64,000 nt of DNA, from sequence record QB031382.1. The stretch is one strand, 5' to 3'. This DNA comes from a phage. Below the pieces are notes generated by a model. That model saw nothing but the letters and a program-made list of their open reading frames with translations, had not been told where the DNA came from and did no database searches. Made by a program: the position numbers and the translations under genes. This document shows positions 34,366 through 62,454 of this stretch, in pieces (the first letter of the stretch is position 1; each line of letters starts with the position of its first letter).

Positions 34366-34839
34366 TTAGTCAATCTGAACCCAACCGCCTGCTACCTTTT
34401 TAAACATTCTTTGGTTATCACTACCTCTGAAAGGTTTTTTGGTTGGTAAATCTTTTACATACTTTCCATCAATGACGATATCAGCCAGTTTAAGAACATC
34501 ACTAGAGATATGCTCAAATGTGAACCCAGTATACACAAGAATAGTTTTCTTGTCACCAAACTTTTCCTTAATTCTCCTCATAAGGTCAATAATACCTGGC
34601 TCATTATAAGTAGCCAAAGGCTCTCCACCAAGTAAAGAAATACCGCATACAGATTCATTGTCTAAATCCAACAAAATTTTCTGCAAATCTTCTTCGGTGA
34701 ACTCTCTTCCTTTATCTTTTGACCAAAATGCTTGATTAAAGCAACCGGGACAAGCGTGTGGGCACCCAGATACCCACAAAGCTGTCCTAATACCTGGCCC
34801 CTCGGTGTAAGATATCTCTGTATACCCGACAATATTCAT
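34366..34839 (-). CDS. nrdG: anaerobic ribonucleotide reductase activating protein
   Basis: GCPHACPGC cysteine motif; track ORF 34366..34857 trimmed to ATG 34839 (MNIVGYT), which forms an ATGA overlap with the upstream small ORF. Confidence 0.75.
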   Translation of the reverse strand: MNIVGYTEISYTEGPGIRTALWVSGCPHACPGCFNQAFWSKDKGREFTEEDLQKILLDLDNESVCGISLLGGEPLATYNEPGIIDLMRRIKEKFGDKKTILVYTGFTFEHISSDVLKLADIVIDGKYVKDLPTKKPFRGSDNQRMFKKVAGGWVQID

Positions 34840-34952
34840 ACATACTCCGCATCGCATTTAGGACAATGCCAAATAAAATCGTCCAGTGCCTTACACCAAC
34901 GAAGATTGCAATGACAACCACACTTGCAAATTTTATAAATACCTGTAGACAT
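34836..34952 (-). CDS. small Cys-rich zinc-ribbon-like protein, 38 aa, absent from track
   Basis: ATG at 34952 after GGAGGTG; hand translation MSTGIYKICKCGCHCNLRWCKALDDFIWHCPKCDAEYV. Confidence 0.45.
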   Translation of the reverse strand: MSTGIYKICKCGCHCNLRWCKALDDFIWHCPKCDAEYV

Positions 34953-35015
34953 GCTGCACCTCCTAGTTTACTGTGTGACAACAATATGCCACATCCTTGT
35001 GACTTTTGTCAAGTA

Positions 35016-36008
35016 TCAGCAACCACAACTTCCGTAGTGCTTAACCCGTTCTATAACCTCCGCTTGCTTACCTTTATTGTAAGGACGGGAGTTTGGACTG
35101 GACAGATACCCGGATACACGTCTAATCACACTGATCGTTCCCTCTTCATGGTTTCCACACTCTGGGCATACAAAGCCTTTAGCTGTTGCACTGAACTCAC
35201 CAGAGAATCCACACTTAAGACATTTATCCACAGGCTGGTTAATACCAAAATACATAATGTGTTTATATCCGAAATCAACAAGAGCTTCCAAAGCATCTAA
35301 GTTGTTTTTCAGATTTGGTGTCTCTATGTACCCAATGTTGCCACCAGAGGAGATCATAGCAAAACCTTCCTCATACTTCCACTTATCAAAAGGCGAGCTA
35401 TTGATCCATACTGGCTGATGGAAACTGTTGGTGAGGTATTCATGCTCGTGCTTCAACACTTCTGGGTATTCACGATCCAGACAGGTTGCAGCTTTATAGC
35501 ATAAACTCTCAGAAGGTGTGCCGTACAAGCTAAATGCTAGTCCACTTTCCTTCTTGTATCGCTCACAAGCATCTTTCATGTGCTGAAGGATTCCAAGAGC
35601 TAAAGCCTTGTCACCCTCTCTGCCCAAAATCTGACAGGTTTCATACACACCAATATACCCAATACTGATGGAAGCGTACCCGTCATAGAAGAGTTTATCG
35701 ATACTCTCTTCAGGATCCAGGCGAGCAAGAGCTCCTTCACACCACATGATAGGGTTATGCCCTGCCTTTGTTCCTTTTAGACGGTTAACTCTTACAAGGT
35801 GAGCCTCATATGCCAAATCCAAATATTCGTCAAGAACTGCAAAGAAATCAACACCTTCCGTTTTAGCTTTTGCCGCAATCATTGGTAGGTTAAGGCTAAC
35901 AACACCCAAGTTGAATCTGCCAAGGTATTTCTCCTCGCCTGTTACAGGATCGCTATATTTCGATAAGAAACTTCTACACATTATGTTCAAGGTGGTTCGC
36001 AAGGCCAC
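35016..36008 (-). CDS. nrdD: anaerobic ribonucleotide reductase, C-terminal part
   Basis: Ends CLKCGF...CPECG...RRVSGYL (Zn site plus glycyl-radical RxSGY motif); track start is a GTG, true 5-prime boundary unknown. Confidence 0.75.
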   Translation of the reverse strand: MALRTTLNIMCRSFLSKYSDPVTGEEKYLGRFNLGVVSLNLPMIAAKAKTEGVDFFAVLDEYLDLAYEAHLVRVNRLKGTKAGHNPIMWCEGALARLDPEESIDKLFYDGYASISIGYIGVYETCQILGREGDKALALGILQHMKDACERYKKESGLAFSLYGTPSESLCYKAATCLDREYPEVLKHEHEYLTNSFHQPVWINSSPFDKWKYEEGFAMISSGGNIGYIETPNLKNNLDALEALVDFGYKHIMYFGINQPVDKCLKCGFSGEFSATAKGFVCPECGNHEEGTISVIRRVSGYLSSPNSRPYNKGKQAEVIERVKHYGSCGC

Positions 36009-36128
36009 CCCCGCACCATTACGTGCTGCTGCATGTCCCCATGCAGATCAGACTATATCTTCACACTTAGTGTGTCTACCATTTCGAGTGTCATCAGCTT
36101 ACACCCTACACCGCTACATTCATCACGG

Positions 36129-36638
36129 TTAGTCGTTAGGCATTTCGTAACAGAACTCGTAATCATAGTTATTAGGTGCACCACGTTTCAGGATAGCAGA
36201 TATTCTTTTTCTATCTATTCCTAAAACATCAGCACAACATCTCAGACTCTTAAAGTGAATAACCACACCAGTTAATTTGTGGGTGGCTTTCACCCCGTGA
36301 CATCTTGTGTAAAAAGCATAACAGTTGTTGTCGTATCCTTCTTGAGTATTGTCTGGGCAAGCTCCCCACTCAAGGTTGTATACGCTGTTATCTTTCCTGT
36401 TGTCACCTTTGTGCTTAACATATGGTAAATTGTCTGGATTTGGTAAAAACGCTTCAGCAACAAGTCTGTGAACCCTTAGGCAAACAGTCTTTTTGTTCTT
36501 GCGTATCCTGACAAGACGGTAACCTGTGTTTATCTCTTCCCACGAATGAATAATTCTTTCATTTTCGTATCGGGTGCAATAAACATTGCCCATCTCGTCA
36601 ATTTCATAACCTTCAAAATCACGAATTTGTTTTCTCAT
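36129..36638 (-). CDS. HNH homing endonuclease inserted in nrdD
   Basis: Track ORF 36129..36680 trimmed to ATG 36638 after AGAGGAG; GYEIDEMGNVY..RLVAEAF..HKGDNRKDNSVYNLEW resembles HNH homing endonucleases. Confidence 0.65.
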   Translation of the reverse strand: MRKQIRDFEGYEIDEMGNVYCTRYENERIIHSWEEINTGYRLVRIRKNKKTVCLRVHRLVAEAFLPNPDNLPYVKHKGDNRKDNSVYNLEWGACPDNTQEGYDNNCYAFYTRCHGVKATHKLTGVVIHFKSLRCCADVLGIDRKRISAILKRGAPNNYDYEFCYEMPND

Positions 36639-36731
36639 TTCAGGACTCCTCTTAGTCAGGAGTTCTGTTACGTTTAGCACGGGATTGTCCGTTCTGGAGT
36701 TTCCCCGTTTAGATAGATTTTACATGAGCAG

Positions 36732-37901
36732 TTATAGTTTACCCATGCTTGTTACTTTGCCGTCTGTTGAACCTGTCACTTTACGATTTAGCGGAACAGA
36801 AACAAAGTCAGGATAAATCCGCTCTGCAGAGCATTCTAAGGCCAATCGTTTCAAATCATAGTTAGGATCCCCAGGGTTCATGTTGACACCCTCCTCTAAG
36901 AAGAACAACACTTTAGGGAACACAGGTGTGATCCGTTCTTCACCAAGACCCATTTTGTGAACTTTCAAGTAGTTTTTGGTAATCATTCTACCAAAGACCG
37001 AAGTATCCAGCCCTAAACTTAATGTGATGAATGGGGTTTGCCCGTTGACAGAAGTTAACGTATTGATTTGGTAGAGCAAAGTTTGCATACTATCAAACAC
37101 GTCTTTATCTGTCATTTGCATTGCAACAGTCTCAGCATCTGGCAACCAATGTTCCTGACAAAATTTAAGGTTCTTCTCATAAGTTGCTTCAGCATACTGT
37201 GCCAAATAATGATCAATATGACTCATGGTCTGACCGCCATATTGAGCACTAGCTACTGCACTAGAGATTTGGCTAAGGATTGTTGTTGCAACCCCTATTG
37301 ACTTCGGCTTACTGACATGGGCGTTGCCAATGTTGAATCCGTTTTCCAGCATATCCGGATAATTTACCAAACAACAGTTTGTTAACGGACTGATCAGGTA
37401 GTCAAGATCATGCACATGGATGAAGCCTTTGTTGTGCTCTTCAGAGACACGGTCTGGCAGGATCTGTGTTGATGCAAGATGTTTGCTAAGGATGCCTGCA
37501 AGCAGGTCACGATGAGTATGCACATGATTAGTAGGCTTATTTGCGTTTTCTTTTGTAAATTCATCACAAGTACGATCCAAGAATCCGCTAATATCTGCAA
37601 GCAGTTTTCCACCTGCCTCTCTGTTATTATCTCTTGTCTGTCTATACTGGATGTATCCTCTGGCTGCACATTTTAAACCCATATCCATAAGAGCATCTTC
37701 AACAAGGATATGGATATTTTTTACAGAGATCGTGCACTGGTCGGTTGGCAGATTGTTGGCAACAACTTCATTAACCGCGCAGGCAATCCGGTAAGCTTCT
37801 TCTTCAGTATGTCCAGACTCAAGTAAGGCGGACTCTGCCGCCTTGATCACCTTAATTCCGTTATAAAACTCTTCTCTACCGTCCCGTTTTACAACTTTCA
37901 C
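36732..37901 (-). CDS. nrdD: anaerobic ribonucleotide reductase, N-terminal part
   Basis: N-terminal ATP-cone-like VKRDGREEFYNGIKV; frame closes at TAA 36732-36734 just before the HNH insertion. Confidence 0.7.
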   Translation of the reverse strand: MKVVKRDGREEFYNGIKVIKAAESALLESGHTEEEAYRIACAVNEVVANNLPTDQCTISVKNIHILVEDALMDMGLKCAARGYIQYRQTRDNNREAGGKLLADISGFLDRTCDEFTKENANKPTNHVHTHRDLLAGILSKHLASTQILPDRVSEEHNKGFIHVHDLDYLISPLTNCCLVNYPDMLENGFNIGNAHVSKPKSIGVATTILSQISSAVASAQYGGQTMSHIDHYLAQYAEATYEKNLKFCQEHWLPDAETVAMQMTDKDVFDSMQTLLYQINTLTSVNGQTPFITLSLGLDTSVFGRMITKNYLKVHKMGLGEERITPVFPKVLFFLEEGVNMNPGDPNYDLKRLALECSAERIYPDFVSVPLNRKVTGSTDGKVTSMGKL

Positions 37902-38176
37902 TTTTTCTCTCCAAAACCATTCTTAACAAAAGAGATGAAATCGTCAGCACCACCTATGTGGATACTGTCAAGGTTGCTTTCCAAGAAGATCTGAGGCAAC
38001 GTTCTGGGAACAAATGGGCTACACTTCTCGATAAGCTCTTCTTTTGTGTATCCTTCACCTAGCGTCTTGTATACGAAAGGTATGCCTTTGCTGACTGCAA
38101 ATTCTTTTGCTCTTACACAATGTGGGCAGTTATCCTTACCGTAAATGATGATGAAAAAAGATTTTTCGCAGCTCAT
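37898..38176 (-). CDS. glutaredoxin/NrdH-like redoxin
   Basis: CPHC active-site motif near N-terminus; 92 aa; sits between nrdB and nrdD. Confidence 0.7.
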   Translation of the reverse strand: MSCEKSFFIIIYGKDNCPHCVRAKEFAVSKGIPFVYKTLGEGYTKEELIEKCSPFVPRTLPQIFLESNLDSIHIGGADDFISFVKNGFGEKK

Positions 38177-38179
38177 ATA

Positions 38180-39268
38180 TTAAAACTCCCAAATTTCTTC
38201 TTCAGCGTCGTTAACAGTTGTGTTGACGCGGTAGTCAGTGTTCGACATTTCTTGGTTCGCCGTCTGTTGCAATGAAGGTTTCATCCACACCTGCATAAAC
38301 GGTAGCGGGTCCTTTGTTGGCGGCACAAAGTCTTTGTCGATGTCGTAATAATCATAAATCGGTGAGCAGTTATAGTCAACCCATTCTTTAAGCAACGGTG
38401 AATTAAGACCTATAATCGCTCTTCCTTCGCTGAAAATATAGTCACTCCAACCGTACTCCTTGGTCCGCACTTCGTCAAGAATTTCTTTTAACTCACCCTT
38501 AATCTCAAGAAAGCTTTGCTCCCATGCAGGATCATCAAGCAGAATATCGATGATAGCAAAATCACCTTTCGAATGCAGCATTTCGTCAAGCATAATTTTT
38601 TGAACAAGTTGCGCCACTTGAACAAAAATACCTTGCTCAGCTACTGCGAACGTACATGCAAAACTTGCAATAAACTCAATACTTTCTAGAGCTAAAAGTG
38701 CAAAAAGTGCTCTAAGGATACATTTCCGTACAACATCTTCTTCAACACTGGAAGGATCCAGTCGGTATTTTGCACCAATAACCTCAAGCTCTTGCATATA
38801 TTTGACAATAACTCCAGATCTGCTCAGCACGTTCTGGTTTTCCTGAATCTCTTCTATAATCTCACGAGCATTAGGAAGGCATTGTCTAACAATCTCTGAG
38901 TAAGTTAGTGCATGAAGAACCTCAATCTCAGACTGCTTCATCAACAAGGTGAAAAGCTCACTATTGGTGATAAATGGTGAAAACAGACAAATGATAGATC
39001 TTGCTGCAACACTGTCTGCCTCCCATTGCCACATCAGTGTCTGCACCATCACATCGTAAGTTGACTTTGAGCATGTTACGAAATCCGAAATAGACTGTGA
39101 CAAATCTACTTCGTCCTCTGCCCAATCTTGTTCTTTTTGTTTTTTGTATAGTTCAAACAGCTGTGGATACTTTTTGTTAATAGAGTCGTACATCCCCATC
39201 TGCTGTCCTAGAAACAGCGGATAATCACCAGTTTTATGAGCAGTGTTCTCAGTATTAAATACGGACAT
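38180..39268 (-). CDS. nrdB: ribonucleotide reductase class I beta subunit
   Basis: 362 aa directly downstream of nrdA; helical iron-site region LESIEFIASFACTFAVAEQG. Confidence 0.8.
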   Translation of the reverse strand: MSVFNTENTAHKTGDYPLFLGQQMGMYDSINKKYPQLFELYKKQKEQDWAEDEVDLSQSISDFVTCSKSTYDVMVQTLMWQWEADSVAARSIICLFSPFITNSELFTLLMKQSEIEVLHALTYSEIVRQCLPNAREIIEEIQENQNVLSRSGVIVKYMQELEVIGAKYRLDPSSVEEDVVRKCILRALFALLALESIEFIASFACTFAVAEQGIFVQVAQLVQKIMLDEMLHSKGDFAIIDILLDDPAWEQSFLEIKGELKEILDEVRTKEYGWSDYIFSEGRAIIGLNSPLLKEWVDYNCSPIYDYYDIDKDFVPPTKDPLPFMQVWMKPSLQQTANQEMSNTDYRVNTTVNDAEEEIWEF

Positions 39269-61641: not shown

Positions 61642-61716
61642 GCCCTGTTAGCTTAGTGGATAAAGCAGCGGCCTTCTAAGCCGTTGACACTGGTTCGAGT
61701 CCAGTACGGGGTGCCA
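61642..61716 (+). tRNA. tRNA-Arg(UCU): tRNA-Arg (anticodon UCU)
   Basis: Hand-folded cloverleaf: acceptor GCCCTGT/ACGGGGT, loop CTTCTAA, T-loop TTCGAGT, encoded CCA. Confidence 0.8.
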
Positions 61717-61720
61717 AATT

Positions 61721-61807
61721 GGGGAGTTATCCCGTAGAGGTAGCGGTGTAGACTGTAAATCTATTGTCATTGCGACTCGGGTGGTTCGACTCCACCACTC
61801 CCCACCA
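61721..61807 (+). tRNA. tRNA-Tyr(GUA): tRNA-Tyr (anticodon GUA), long variable arm
   Basis: Acceptor GGGGAGT/ACTCCCC, loop CTGTAAA, T-loop TTCGACT, encoded CCA. Confidence 0.75.
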
Positions 61808-61921
61808 AATTTATATTTTTAAATGCATAAATCATACAGATAATGACATTGATATTTATCGTCGTTTATACTAGTCACTAACTGCTCGAAAATCAGTGTC
61901 ATTATCAGTGTAATTTATAAA

Positions 61922-62012
61922 GGAGGGTAGGGAGCAATGGTGCTCAAGCGGTCTTGAAAACCGTCCCGTTGAGGATGACTCGATGATGGTTCGATTCCAT
62001 TACTCTCCGCCA
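61922..62012 (+). tRNA. tRNA-Ser(UGA): tRNA-Ser (anticodon UGA), long variable arm
   Basis: Acceptor GGAGGGT/ACTCTCC with one GU, loop CTTGAAA, T-loop TTCGATT, encoded CCA. Confidence 0.75.
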
Positions 62013-62110
62013 CATTGTTGACCTTGTAATTAAGCGAAAGCCGGAAGCAGAACCGGATTATCAAATGTTACAGTCGTCATCGCCGACTAGCCACATGGTC
62101 AACATATTGC

Positions 62111-62207
62111 GCTAGGTAAGCCCTTTGGCAAGGGCGAGGATTTTTAATCCTGAAAATAGACGCGGTAGTCGTTGAATACATAGGTGGTTCGATTCCATCA
62201 CCTAGCA
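62111..62207 (+). tRNA. atypical tRNA-like gene, identity unresolved
   Basis: Perfect acceptor GCTAGGT/ACCTAGC, D-arm and T-arm (TTCGATT), but the anticodon region is a 6-bp hairpin AGGATT/AATCCT with UUU loop and about 30 extra nt; 97 nt. Confidence 0.4.
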
Positions 62208-62214
62208 CCTTTTT

Positions 62215-62290
62215 GCTGATGTAGCACAATCGGTAGTGCAATTGATTTGTAATCAATAGGTTGCAGGTTCAAGTCCTGCCATCAGCACCA
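62215..62290 (+). tRNA. tRNA-Thr(UGU): tRNA-Thr (anticodon UGU)
   Basis: Acceptor GCTGATG/CATCAGC, stem ATTGA/TCAAT, loop TTTGTAA, T-loop TTCAAGT, encoded CCA. Confidence 0.8.
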
Positions 62291-62291
62291 T

Positions 62292-62366
62292 GGCCCTGTA
62301 GCTGGAAGGTTCAAGCAAGCGACTCATAATCGCCAGACGGTGGTTCAATTCCACCCAGGGCCACCA
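62292..62366 (+). tRNA. tRNA-Met(CAU): tRNA-Met or tRNA-Ile2 (anticodon CAU)
   Basis: Acceptor GGCCCTG/CAGGGCC, loop CTCATAA, T-loop TTCAATT, encoded CCA. Confidence 0.75.
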
Positions 62367-62377
62367 AATTATAAATA

Positions 62378-62454
62378 CTCCGCGTAGCTCAGCTTGGTAG
62401 AGCGCCTGATTTGGGATCAGGAGGTCGAGTGTTCGAATCACTCCGTGGAGACCA
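62378..62454 (+). tRNA. tRNA-Pro(UGG): tRNA-Pro (anticodon UGG)
   Basis: Acceptor CTCCGCG/CGTGGAG, D-arm GCTCAGCTTGGTAGAGC, loop TTTGGGA, T-loop TTCGAAT, encoded CCA. Confidence 0.75.

Follow-up and report, generated by a model that had tools for sequence, protein, structure and literature searches.

A putative mobile group I intron with an HNH endonuclease gene interrupts a phage nrdD gene at its catalytic cysteine codon

The nrdD gene, for anaerobic ribonucleotide reductase (RNR), in the phage sequence record QB031382.1 is interrupted by a 762-nt insert. With a probability of about 0.9, sequence comparison makes this insert a mobile group I intron of subgroup IA2, a member of the ribozyme family of the T4 nrdD (sunY) intron, and it is predicted to splice. 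The window analysed, that is, the whole stretch of DNA, is 64,000 nt long; the features discussed are given in window positions in Table 1.

Table 1. Coordinates of the interrupted nrdD gene, of its predicted intron and of the structural elements assigned to the RNA
Feature	Position	Strand	Description	Basis
nrdD exon 1	36741..37901	-	387 codons; ATP-cone and N-terminal half of the NRDD domain	ORF list, Pfam
Predicted group I intron	35979..36740	-	762 nt; first base A36740, last base omega-G 35979	
nrdD exon 2	35016..35978	-	320 codons and stop; opens with UGU; glycyl-radical domain	
HNH ORF	36129..36638	-	169 aa, I-HmuI-like; P6a loop	PDB 1u3e, phrog_59, Pfam, orthologues
P1	36722..36748	-	exon GCAUGGGU (36748..36741) / internal guide GCUCAUGU (36729..36722)	
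P10, exon 2 side	35974..35978	-	UGUAG; can pair with intron CUAUA	
P3, 5' strand	36712..36717	-	UCUAUC; pairs with GGUAGA (36080..36075)	
P4-P5 domain	36679..36708	-	ACGGGG ... UCC/GGA ... UCCCGU	covariation, MFE fold
P6a, 5' strand, with adjoining hairpin	36645..36672	-	CGUAACAG (36672..36665)	
3' catalytic core	36051..36153	-	P6a-3', P6-3', J6/7, P7, P7.1, P7.2, P3-3', P8, J8/7	Rfam alignment, covariation
P7, 5' strand	36134..36130	-	GACUA	
J8/7 and P7, 3' strand	36061..36051	-	AAGAUA and UAGUC	
P7.1	36129..36110	-		
P7.2	36106..36086	-		
P3, 3' strand	36080..36075	-		
P8	36074..36062	-		
P9	36046..36029	-	CUGCAUG/CAUGCAG	
P9.1	36026..36013	-		
P9.2	36009..35991	-		
P9 to 3' end	35979..36046	-	P9, P9.1, P9.2 and tail UUGAACAUAAUG ending in omega-G	
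Diverged exon patch	35943..35978	-	~35 nt; linked to intron presence	

The phage is an rV5/FV3-like coliphage, and it also encodes the aerobic NrdAB. Exon 1 is colinear with nucleotides 1-1161 of the rV5 nrdD gene and ends in ...ACA AGC AUG GGU; read past the junction (...ACA AGC ATG GGT / AAA CTA TAA), its frame closes at a stop codon at 36734..36732 and, as the first-pass annotation had noted, nrdD resumes downstream. The upstream piece covers positions 1-263 of the Pfam NRDD profile and the downstream piece positions 263-562, and since this coverage is contiguous, at position 263, the two pieces are not a chance break in an ORF; a Pfam Gly_radical match also lies in exon 2. The splice suggested at that stage, between U36741, the final base of exon 1, and G35979, the final base of an intron ending in ...AUAAUG, would join 36741 to 35978 in frame (...TSMG/CRSFL...), and it agrees to the nucleotide with the excess over rV5: deletion of the 762 nt leaves an ORF of 2124 nt, exactly as long as the intronless rV5 nrdD gene, with 695 of the 707 residues identical. 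The predicted spliced junction reads ...AGCAUGGGU/UGUAGAAG..., and the break falls between a Gly codon and that of the catalytic Cys (Cys388, UGU, at the start of exon 2), which aligns with Cys290 of T4 NrdD. Comparisons of the exons of intron-bearing phages gave ratios of synonymous to nonsynonymous codon changes of 60:2, 51:1, 59:13 and 29:3; judged by these counts, both exons are under purifying selection among those phages.

The insert contains a P3-P6 and a P7-P9 domain, the P3/P7 pseudoknot and a J8/7 that conforms to the consensus, and all the canonical helices are present in the window. P1 is paired at 8/8 positions, with a U.G wobble at the 5' splice site, and its outermost pair (column 5/32) covaries between homologues as C-G, G-C or U-G; the UAA that closes the exon 1 frame (36734..36732) lies in the loop of P1, as does the guide for P10, CUAUA (36737..36733). 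P10 has 5/5 pairs in the window, in nepoznato and in REP8, and in Vibrio phage F99 the two strands have changed in a compensatory manner to UGGCA/UGCCG. All six pairs of P3 are maintained (100% paired), four of them with compensatory changes, as established with RNAalifold and by counting pairs. In P6a, CGUAACAG is paired at 8/8 positions with CUGUUACG (36153..36146), and the helix covaries in JSE (CAUAGCGG/CCGCUAUG), F99 and REP8; the P6 pairing is seen in the minimum free energy (MFE) fold of the window core. The P7 strands GACUA/UAGUC and the J8/7 sequence AAGAUA are invariant across the introns compared, and covariation was found in P7.1, P7.2 and P8, with double changes at 3/5 pairs of P7.1 and 4/6 pairs of P7.2. 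The presence of P7.1 and P7.2 between P7 and P3' is the hallmark of subgroup IA2.

When eight cores from which the ORF had been deleted were analysed together, RNAalifold recovered P1, P3, P4, P5, P7.1, P7.2, P8, P9 and P9.2, and 29 of the 59 pairs in the consensus are compensatory. With the P7 pseudoknot included, 95.5% of the pair cells in the eight related introns are paired, as against 36-44% with slid partners, and 29 pairs with double changes were observed, as against 1-4 with slid partners; none of 500 shuffles reached the observed values. Folded singly, the window core shows these helices in its MFE structure as well (z = -3.1).

A covariance-model search for group I cores, named as a check in the first-pass annotation, gave a partial match: the window aligns with RF00028 at 32.9 bits (E 2.9e-6 locally and 1.3e-4 for the whole window), over the P7-P9 half only. 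This score lies below the gathering cut-off of 50 bits because the model is broken up by the 511-nt loop that holds the ORF. At gathering thresholds, a scan of the whole window with Rfam returned tRNAs only and no intron match, and permissive scans recovered only the 3' half of the intron, with no further group I signal in the window. Homologues without the ORF, inserted at the same site, are 279-290 nt long, score 70.4 and 70.6 bits against RF00028 and are ~90% identical to the non-ORF parts of the window intron; by their measure the ribozyme core takes up only ~250-290 nt. The flanks of the HNH ORF, put at about 100 and 150 nt and considered short for an intron core, are indeed of that size (102 nt on the 5' side and 150 nt on the 3' side). 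As an objection to an intron, however, their length carries no weight, both because the core is small, as is evident from the ORF-less homologues that share its insertion site, and because the ORF is placed in the P6a loop, with its last eight codons (FCYEMPND*) doubling as P6a-3', P6-3', J6/7 and P7-5'.

The sub-threshold Rfam score would be in line with an intron that has decayed and no longer splices, nrdD being a pseudogene in the window phage, as would the dispensability of nrdD in aerobic laboratory growth. However, every helix is intact, P3 and P5 of the window carrying changes that are compensated, the exons are without frameshifts or stops and their substitutions between intron-bearing phages are overwhelmingly synonymous, and the HNH ORF is intact as well; we thus regard decay as highly improbable.

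Slightly less probable still is that a free-standing HNH gene has split nrdD into two halves that are translated separately and reassemble, in the manner of the Aeh1 NrdA/mobE arrangement, an option that had initially been rated equally possible. The element is annotated in this way in GenBank and in publications on Felix O1-like phages, and a precedent for a functional split RNR is cited in PMC3653736. The frame of exon 1 closes three codons beyond the junction, and an AUG coincides exactly with the 3' splice site, where exon 2 starts; going by the window sequence alone, exon 2 could therefore be translated independently. However, no Shine-Dalgarno sequence precedes this AUG, and the homologous site in REP8 ends in ...CAAG/UGU, with no start codon there; the second CDS annotated in REP8 begins 31 codons downstream and would lose the loop with the catalytic Cys, and the break itself sits between Gly and that Cys. 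In addition, the spacer is a complete, covarying group I core that pairs with both exons, through P1 and P10, and ORF-less derivatives retain a structured spacer of roughly 280 nt. Genes in pieces would be expected to have no ribozyme and to have a downstream half with a conserved start of its own, and the locus departs from this on both counts. The intron and the splice junction suggested for it are strongly supported, and the equal weighting of the two readings is given up.

An error of sequencing or assembly, which had been mentioned as a conceivable source of the stop, is excluded by the occurrence of the same insert in independently sequenced phages (94-100% identity, and 100% in SYGMH1), with boundaries that are exact relative to intronless alleles, and its probability is negligible. 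An intein was considered and rejected, since the frame closes three codons past the junction, at a stop, and the endonuclease gene has a start codon and a ribosome-binding site for itself.

The HNH ORF was recognized from the outset as having its own ribosome-binding site, and it is intact (169 codons), with AGGAG (36650..36646) located 7 nt upstream of the ATG. It matches I-HmuI (1u3e) over residues 3-166 (E 6e-8) and phrog_59 (E 4.5e-32); both Pfam matches are below their cut-offs (HNH_3, 20.0 versus 24.8 bits; I-HmuI_NUMOD-like, 18.5 versus 27), and an NCBIfam scan of the ORF gave a weak, meaningless match only. Orthologues are found in JSE, nepoznato and Vibrio phage F99. The HNH motif is kept, residues H76, N88 and N97 of the ORF aligning with H75, N87 and N96 of I-HmuI. 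The equivalent of I-HmuI Asp74, which we take to be a metal ligand, is a Lys, and the predicted endonuclease activity is therefore uncertain. The Shine-Dalgarno sequence of the ORF is sequestered in a hairpin (ACUCCU-GACUAAG-AGGAGU, 36663..36645; -11.7 kcal/mol, z -2.95), analogues of which are seen in three homologues; as the predicted fold suggests, the hairpin probably limits or delays translation of the ORF. In a scan of positions 34800-38300, the only terminator called within the intron was discarded, being the reverse complement of this hairpin and thus on the wrong strand. The sigma-70 scan of the same region gave four promoter-like sites, versus 7.0 expected, and hence no signal, and none of them precedes the HNH ORF on the strand that encodes it.

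The insert has a patchy distribution: of the 298 phage records in which a related nrdD is present, only 18 contain it; the full-length element is present in about 29 phage records. Between the window and the Phapecoctavirus nepoznato, the intron is 86% identical, as compared to 65-68% for the flanking 400-nt exons, and across phage subfamilies the intron is conserved better than the exons. The diverged patch at the start of exon 2 is common to 6/6 of the intron-plus Vequintavirus alleles examined, while the intronless alleles of rV5, typing-phage-14 and PDX share a second version and those of FV3 and ECP2303 a third; the rV5-type intronless site reads ...ATGGGT/TGCCGGAGTTTTCTTAGC... and the FV3-type site ...ATGGGA/TGTAGGTCGTTCCTTGGC.... 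Going by these alleles, the patch probably represents either a co-conversion tract or a form of the homing site that resists cleavage. Its strict linkage to the intron, the patchy spread of the insert and the better conservation of the intron than of the exons form a pattern that fits homing.

We propose that nrdD would be transcribed as a single pre-mRNA, on which ribosomes translating exon 1 would halt at UAA, the third codon of the intron. The RNA would then fold, with GCAUGGGU/GCUCAUGU as P1, the P3-P9 core, the G-binding pseudoknot of P7 and the IA2-specific P7.1/P7.2; exogenous guanosine would attack after U36741, exon 2 would be aligned by P10 (CUAUA/UGUAG) and ligation would take place after omega-G 35979. 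The product would be a NrdD protein of 707 aa, with an intact ...TSMG-CRSFL... loop including the catalytic cysteine. The I-HmuI-like enzyme may nick or cut intronless nrdD at a predicted position near the insertion site, and when the break was then repaired from an intron-bearing copy, both the intron and ~35 nt of the 3' exon would be passed on.

In phage ribonucleotide reductase genes, group I introns that carry an HNH or a GIY-YIG gene have been well known since T4. The present element is already in GenBank as a split gene, and current understanding is unchanged. In the annotated intron-bearing records that we inspected, nrdD is entered as two CDSs (three when there is a second intron) plus a 'hypothetical protein' or 'homing endonuclease'; the correct annotation would be a single join() CDS and an intron feature with exact splice sites. 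The predicted intron would add a second phage nrdD intron site, or a third if the FV3-type insertion is counted, directly at the catalytic cysteine codon, and would provide a natural example of modular intron/endonuclease evolution with an intron-linked co-conversion patch. The P1 target is ...UAUGAGU/ in T4 and Mosigvirus and ...CAUGGGU/ in the window, with an identical guide GCUCAUGU in both. It is conceivable, although we hold it to be rather doubtful, that one sunY-type lineage moved between two nrdD sites that share the P1 target AUGRGU, with endonucleases captured independently. If so, ectopic insertion by reverse splicing or illegitimate homing would have been followed by the capture of a GIY-YIG gene after P9 in one case and of an HNH gene in P6a in the other, and the HNH enzyme would drive a local arms race, with three sharply different homing-site haplotypes (~40 nt) in a single genus. 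The idea that guide complementarity alone determines the site was rejected, nrdD having four ATGRGT sites of which only one is occupied.

The closest known system is found in the same host gene. The T4 nrdD (sunY) intron is likewise of subgroup IA2, without P2 and with P7.1 and P7.2; its identity to the window intron is 80% in the P7-P9 core and 72.6% when all of the aligned core is counted, and it shares the 8-nt guide and an in-frame stop soon past the 5' splice site. However, the T4 site (...AYE/Y...) is ~110 codons upstream of that in the window (...SMG/CRS), and the T4 intron encodes the GIY-YIG enzyme I-TevII downstream of P9, whereas the window intron has its I-HmuI-like HNH ORF in the P6a loop. 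The possibilities that the window site is the T4 site, or that the FV3 insertion is, were rejected, the alignments showing three distinct sites. The T4 td intron is also an IA2 intron in a gene of nucleotide metabolism with an ORF looped out of P6a, and its core is 71.7% identical to that of the window over 118 nt; it differs in its host gene and in encoding a GIY-YIG enzyme, I-TevI, instead of an HNH one. The td ORF's ribosome-binding site is reportedly sequestered in a hairpin too, a finding ascribed to Gibb and Edgell. I-HmuI, from the DNA polymerase intron of Bacillus phage SPO1 (1U3E), is of similar size (174 aa versus 169 aa) and can be aligned end to end, through the N-terminal beta domain, the HNH motif and the C-terminal helix-turn-helix region; sequence similarity is nevertheless low, the host gene, phage and target are different, and Asp74 is not conserved. 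Orthologues at the same site occur in JSE, in the Felix O1-like phages UAB_Phi87 and REP8, in Phapecoctavirus and Justusliebigvirus and in Vibrio phage F99; they share the MG/CRS junction and the ribozyme, and the ORF, if present, is of the same HNH family, with ...EMPND* over P7. The interruption of nrdD in Felix O1-like phages was called a split gene with a homing endonuclease (PMC4837284), and our literature search found no assignment of a ribozyme or of splice sites for the MG/CRS interruption. Lastly, nrdA-a/nrdA-b of Aeromonas phage Aeh1 resemble the present locus in having an HNH gene, mobE, between the two halves of an RNR gene; there, no intron is involved and two polypeptides are made, whereas in the window the two halves are separated by a complete, covarying group I ribozyme.

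The source of the window is a Vequintavirus (rV5/FV3-like) coliphage; over 35016-37901 the sequence shares 99.1% identity with Escherichia phage vB_EcoM_SYGMH1 and 94-99% with further phages of this genus, and the genes on the minus strand follow the order nrdA, nrdB, glutaredoxin, nrdD and nrdG. As recorded in the first-pass annotation, the NrdD frame that opens at 37901 closes at 36734..36732 (...ACA AGC ATG GGT AAA CTA TAA), an HNH ORF with its own ribosome-binding site follows, and the NrdD frame then picks up again, to end at 35016. The HNH ORF has 169 codons, with its ATG 7 nt downstream of AGGAG. The upstream piece of nrdD matches positions 1-263 of the Pfam NRDD profile and the downstream piece positions 263-562. 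The nrdD gene of rV5 is uninterrupted and 2124 nt long, and by BLAST the window region exceeds it by exactly 762 nt. Removal of 36740..35979 leaves an ORF of 2124 nt with no internal stop, in which 695 of 707 residues are those of rV5 NrdD. The in-frame TSMG/CRSFL join proposed earlier is borne out, the junction reading ...K-V-T-S-M-G | C-R-S-F-L..., with the G at 35979 as the final base of the insert and 35978 as the start of exon 2. The first residue of exon 2, Cys388, aligns with Cys290 of T4 NrdD. Structural and mutagenesis work on the T4 enzyme places this thiyl-radical cysteine at the tip of the finger loop in the active site; highly conserved catalytic sites are typical locations of introns and inteins. 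Elsewhere in the window, a cysteine-rich ORF of 38 amino acids (…CKCGCHC…CPKC…), seen only in a mechanical ORF list, lies between nrdD and nrdG. At least six tRNA genes are clustered, together with two sub-threshold tRNA-Sec-like matches that probably represent tRNAs with a long variable arm.

The 762-nt insert is a group I intron, and its precise excision from the nrdD transcript would be predicted. A covariance-model search, one of the checks named in the first-pass annotation, matched the window intron in part: a permissive Rfam scan of 35700-37100 returned RF00028 at 32.9 bits (E 2.9e-6). The score stays under the cut-off of 50 bits because the ORF interrupts the model. In the Rfam alignment, the diagnostic string GACUA...AAUGGUAGACA-P8-GAAGAUAUAGUCUGAUCUGCAUGGGGACAUGCAG aligns to P7, P3', P8, J8/7, P7' and P9. 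In two Justusliebigvirus genomes the MG|CRS junction is occupied by ORF-less introns of 290 nt and 279 nt, which share about 90% identity with the non-ORF parts of the window intron and cover the full model at 70.4 and 70.6 bits. The sequences flanking the ORF had been thought too short for an intron core; the ORF-less versions show that about 250-290 nt suffice. In the window, the core is made up of a 102-nt 5' flank, a 150-nt 3' flank and the last eight codons of the ORF, the end of which (TTC TGT TAC GAA ATG CCT AAC GAC TAA) doubles as P6a-3', P6-3', J6/7 and P7-5'. The ORF-less introns retain the last few HNH codons (e.g. ...TATGATTATGAGTTCTGTTACGAAATGCCTAACGACTAG), so they stem from internal deletions in the endonuclease gene that spared the part shared with the ribozyme core.

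Coordinates of the nrdD intron, related elements and neighboring features
Feature	Record	Position (strand)	Remark
nrdD exon 1	window	37901..36741 (-)	
Intron	window	36740..35979 (-)	762 nt
HNH ORF	window	36638..36129 (-)	in P6a loop
RF00028 match	window	36263..36029 (-)	
nrdD exon 2	window	35978..35016 (-)	
38-aa ORF	window	34836-34952 (-)	
tRNA cluster	window	61642-62451 (+)	
tRNA-Sec-like matches	window	61721-61803; 61922-62008	
ORF-less intron	L008 (OP177727)	1501-1790	
ORF-less intron	L009 (MG065689)	1501-1779	
ORF-less intron	L014 (REP8 OQ174507)	1083-1398	
Insertion at ...SVNG|QTPF...	L002 (FV3 NC_019517)	1161-1958 (of locus)	798 nt, own HNH ORF; also L003 (JEP1), L021 (navn)
3' intron core	PDX (MG963916)	99671-99806	78% identity

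The introns of the window, nepoznato, pEC-M2929, JSE, Vibrio F99 and REP8, with the P6a loop excised, were aligned with the T4 sunY and Mosigvirus (G2285) cores. RNAalifold, which has no knowledge of group I introns, returned P1, the long-range P3, P4, P5, P7.1, P7.2, P8, P9 and P9.2, with compensatory double changes in 29 of 59 pairs. When the P7 pseudoknot was included, standard pairs filled 95.5% of the pair cells, against 36-44% when the 3' partners were slid by 1-3 columns, which also reduced the pairs with double changes from 29 to 1-4; in 500 column shuffles, no pairing measure ever equalled its observed value. P6 was disregarded in this count and rests on the fold of the ORF-deleted window intron, which gave the same helices plus P6 and P6a (-80.2 kcal/mol, z -3.1). 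P1 (GCAUGGGU/GCUCAUGU) is paired at 8/8 positions, with U.G at the cleavage site, and P10 joins CUAUA in the P1 loop to UGUAG at the start of exon 2; this pairing is matched in nepoznato and REP8, and is UGGCA/UGCCG in Vibrio F99. P6a changes from CGUAACAG/CUGUUACG to CAUAGCGG/CCGCUAUG in JSE and CAAAGUAUU/AAUACUUUG in F99 while F-x-Y-E coding is kept. The presence of P7.1 and P7.2 places the intron in subgroup IA2, with the T4 introns.

A dead intron within an nrdD pseudogene is unlikely: every helix is intact, and strong purifying selection on both exons shows in the ratios of synonymous to nonsynonymous codon changes when intron-bearing phages are compared (60:2, 51:1, 59:13 and 29:3). The first-pass annotation had given equal weight to an intron and to a gene split into two polypeptides by a free-standing HNH gene. 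The ribozyme core, the covariation and the restored frame uphold the former and make the latter very unlikely, since separately translated halves leave unaccounted for a conserved, covarying ribozyme pairing with both exons and a structured spacer kept after loss of the ORF. Moreover, the AUG at the junction has no ribosome-binding site upstream, and in REP8, where the intron boundary reads CAAG|UGU, there is no start codon, which leaves the annotated second CDS of that phage without the catalytic loop. A sequencing error or other artefact as the source of the stop is excluded by independent genomes.

Among the 298 phage records that hold a related nrdD, only 18 have the intron; in the whole collection, about 29 records carry it at full length. 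Members of Vequintavirinae, Stephanstirmvirinae, Ounavirinae and Krischvirus have the element, as does a Vibrio phage. Intron identity between the window and nepoznato is 86%, whereas the adjoining 400 nt on either exon side reach only 65-68%. The opening 35 nt of exon 2 are of one type (TGTAGAAGTTTCTTATCGAAATATAGCGAYCCTGTA) in all six intron-bearing Vequintavirus alleles examined, of a second (TGCCGGAGTTTTCTTAGCAAATAYAATGACTTGGAA) in the intronless rV5, typing phage 14 and PDX, and of a third in the intronless FV3 and ECP2303, which also have GGA, not GGU, at the splice position. The sequence around this patch tracks ordinary strain phylogeny. Such a pattern is what co-conversion, selection for cleavage-resistant homing sites, or both would produce, and suggests that the enzyme may recognise or cut the 3' exon side. 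More than 20 records labelled "UNVERIFIED: Campylobacter phage" (MG0656xx, e.g. L009 and L020) share at least 94% identity in the nrdD region with E. coli Vequintavirus/Justusliebigvirus; probably the host label is wrong or they are contaminants.

Group I introns with homing endonuclease genes are classical in phage RNR genes (PMC2988022, PMC3653736), and GenBank already contains the exact window element. The papers examined refer to the same-site interruption in Felix O1-like phages and JSE solely as a "split gene" with a homing endonuclease between its parts (PMC4837284), and it is not listed in reviews of T4-related phages (PMC2993671). Assigning a ribozyme and splice sites to it, and recognising that ORF and core overlap, may thus amount to a new description, albeit of a well-known kind of element.

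Along its whole length the ORF can be aligned with I-HmuI, an HNH nicking endonuclease encoded by the intron in the SPO1 DNA polymerase gene (PDB 1u3e; residues 3-166 against 4-172, E 6e-8), with H76, N88 and N97 opposite H75, N87 and N96. It also matches phrog_59 (HNH endonuclease; E 4.5e-32), and Pfam HNH_3 and I-HmuI_NUMOD-like below their cut-offs. Orthologous ORFs with the same ...EMPND* end lie in the introns that nepoznato, JSE and Vibrio F99 have at this site, and each of the four ORFs has its Shine-Dalgarno sequence sequestered in a hairpin (z -2.3 to -3.4). This arrangement resembles the translational restraint reported for I-TevI and mobE, and a similar restraint may operate here; a paper on the mobE hairpin is among the references of PMC2993671.

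At a further nrdD site, ...SVNG|QTPF... (rV5 nt 860/861), FV3, JEP1 and navn have an insertion that is absent from the window nrdD and apparently lacks an ORF in navn. Visual inspection suggests a group I intron (P1 AACGGU/GCCGUU; AGAUAGUC close to the 3' end), with no Rfam match at E < 1e-3. Counting this site with those of the window and T4, introns or other insertions occupy no fewer than three different positions in phage nrdD. PDX, whose nrdD is intronless, has elsewhere in its genome a 3' intron core 78% identical to that of the window intron, perhaps one of the terminase introns described from rV5 (PMC3606486). The T4 nrdD (sunY) intron lies about 110 codons upstream of the window site, at ...AYE|Y..., and carries the gene for the GIY-YIG enzyme I-TevII after P9. 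Despite the different sites, the internal guide GCUCAUGU is identical in both introns, and AUGRGU ends both sites; the spliced nrdD contains four ATGRGT sites, one of them occupied. Over P7-P9 the window and sunY cores are 80% identical, and core identity with the T4 td intron is 71.7%. Over the whole aligned core, sunY (72.6%) and the Mosigvirus intron (77.2%) are as close to the window intron as its same-site relatives in REP8 (71.4%) and F99 (74.1%).
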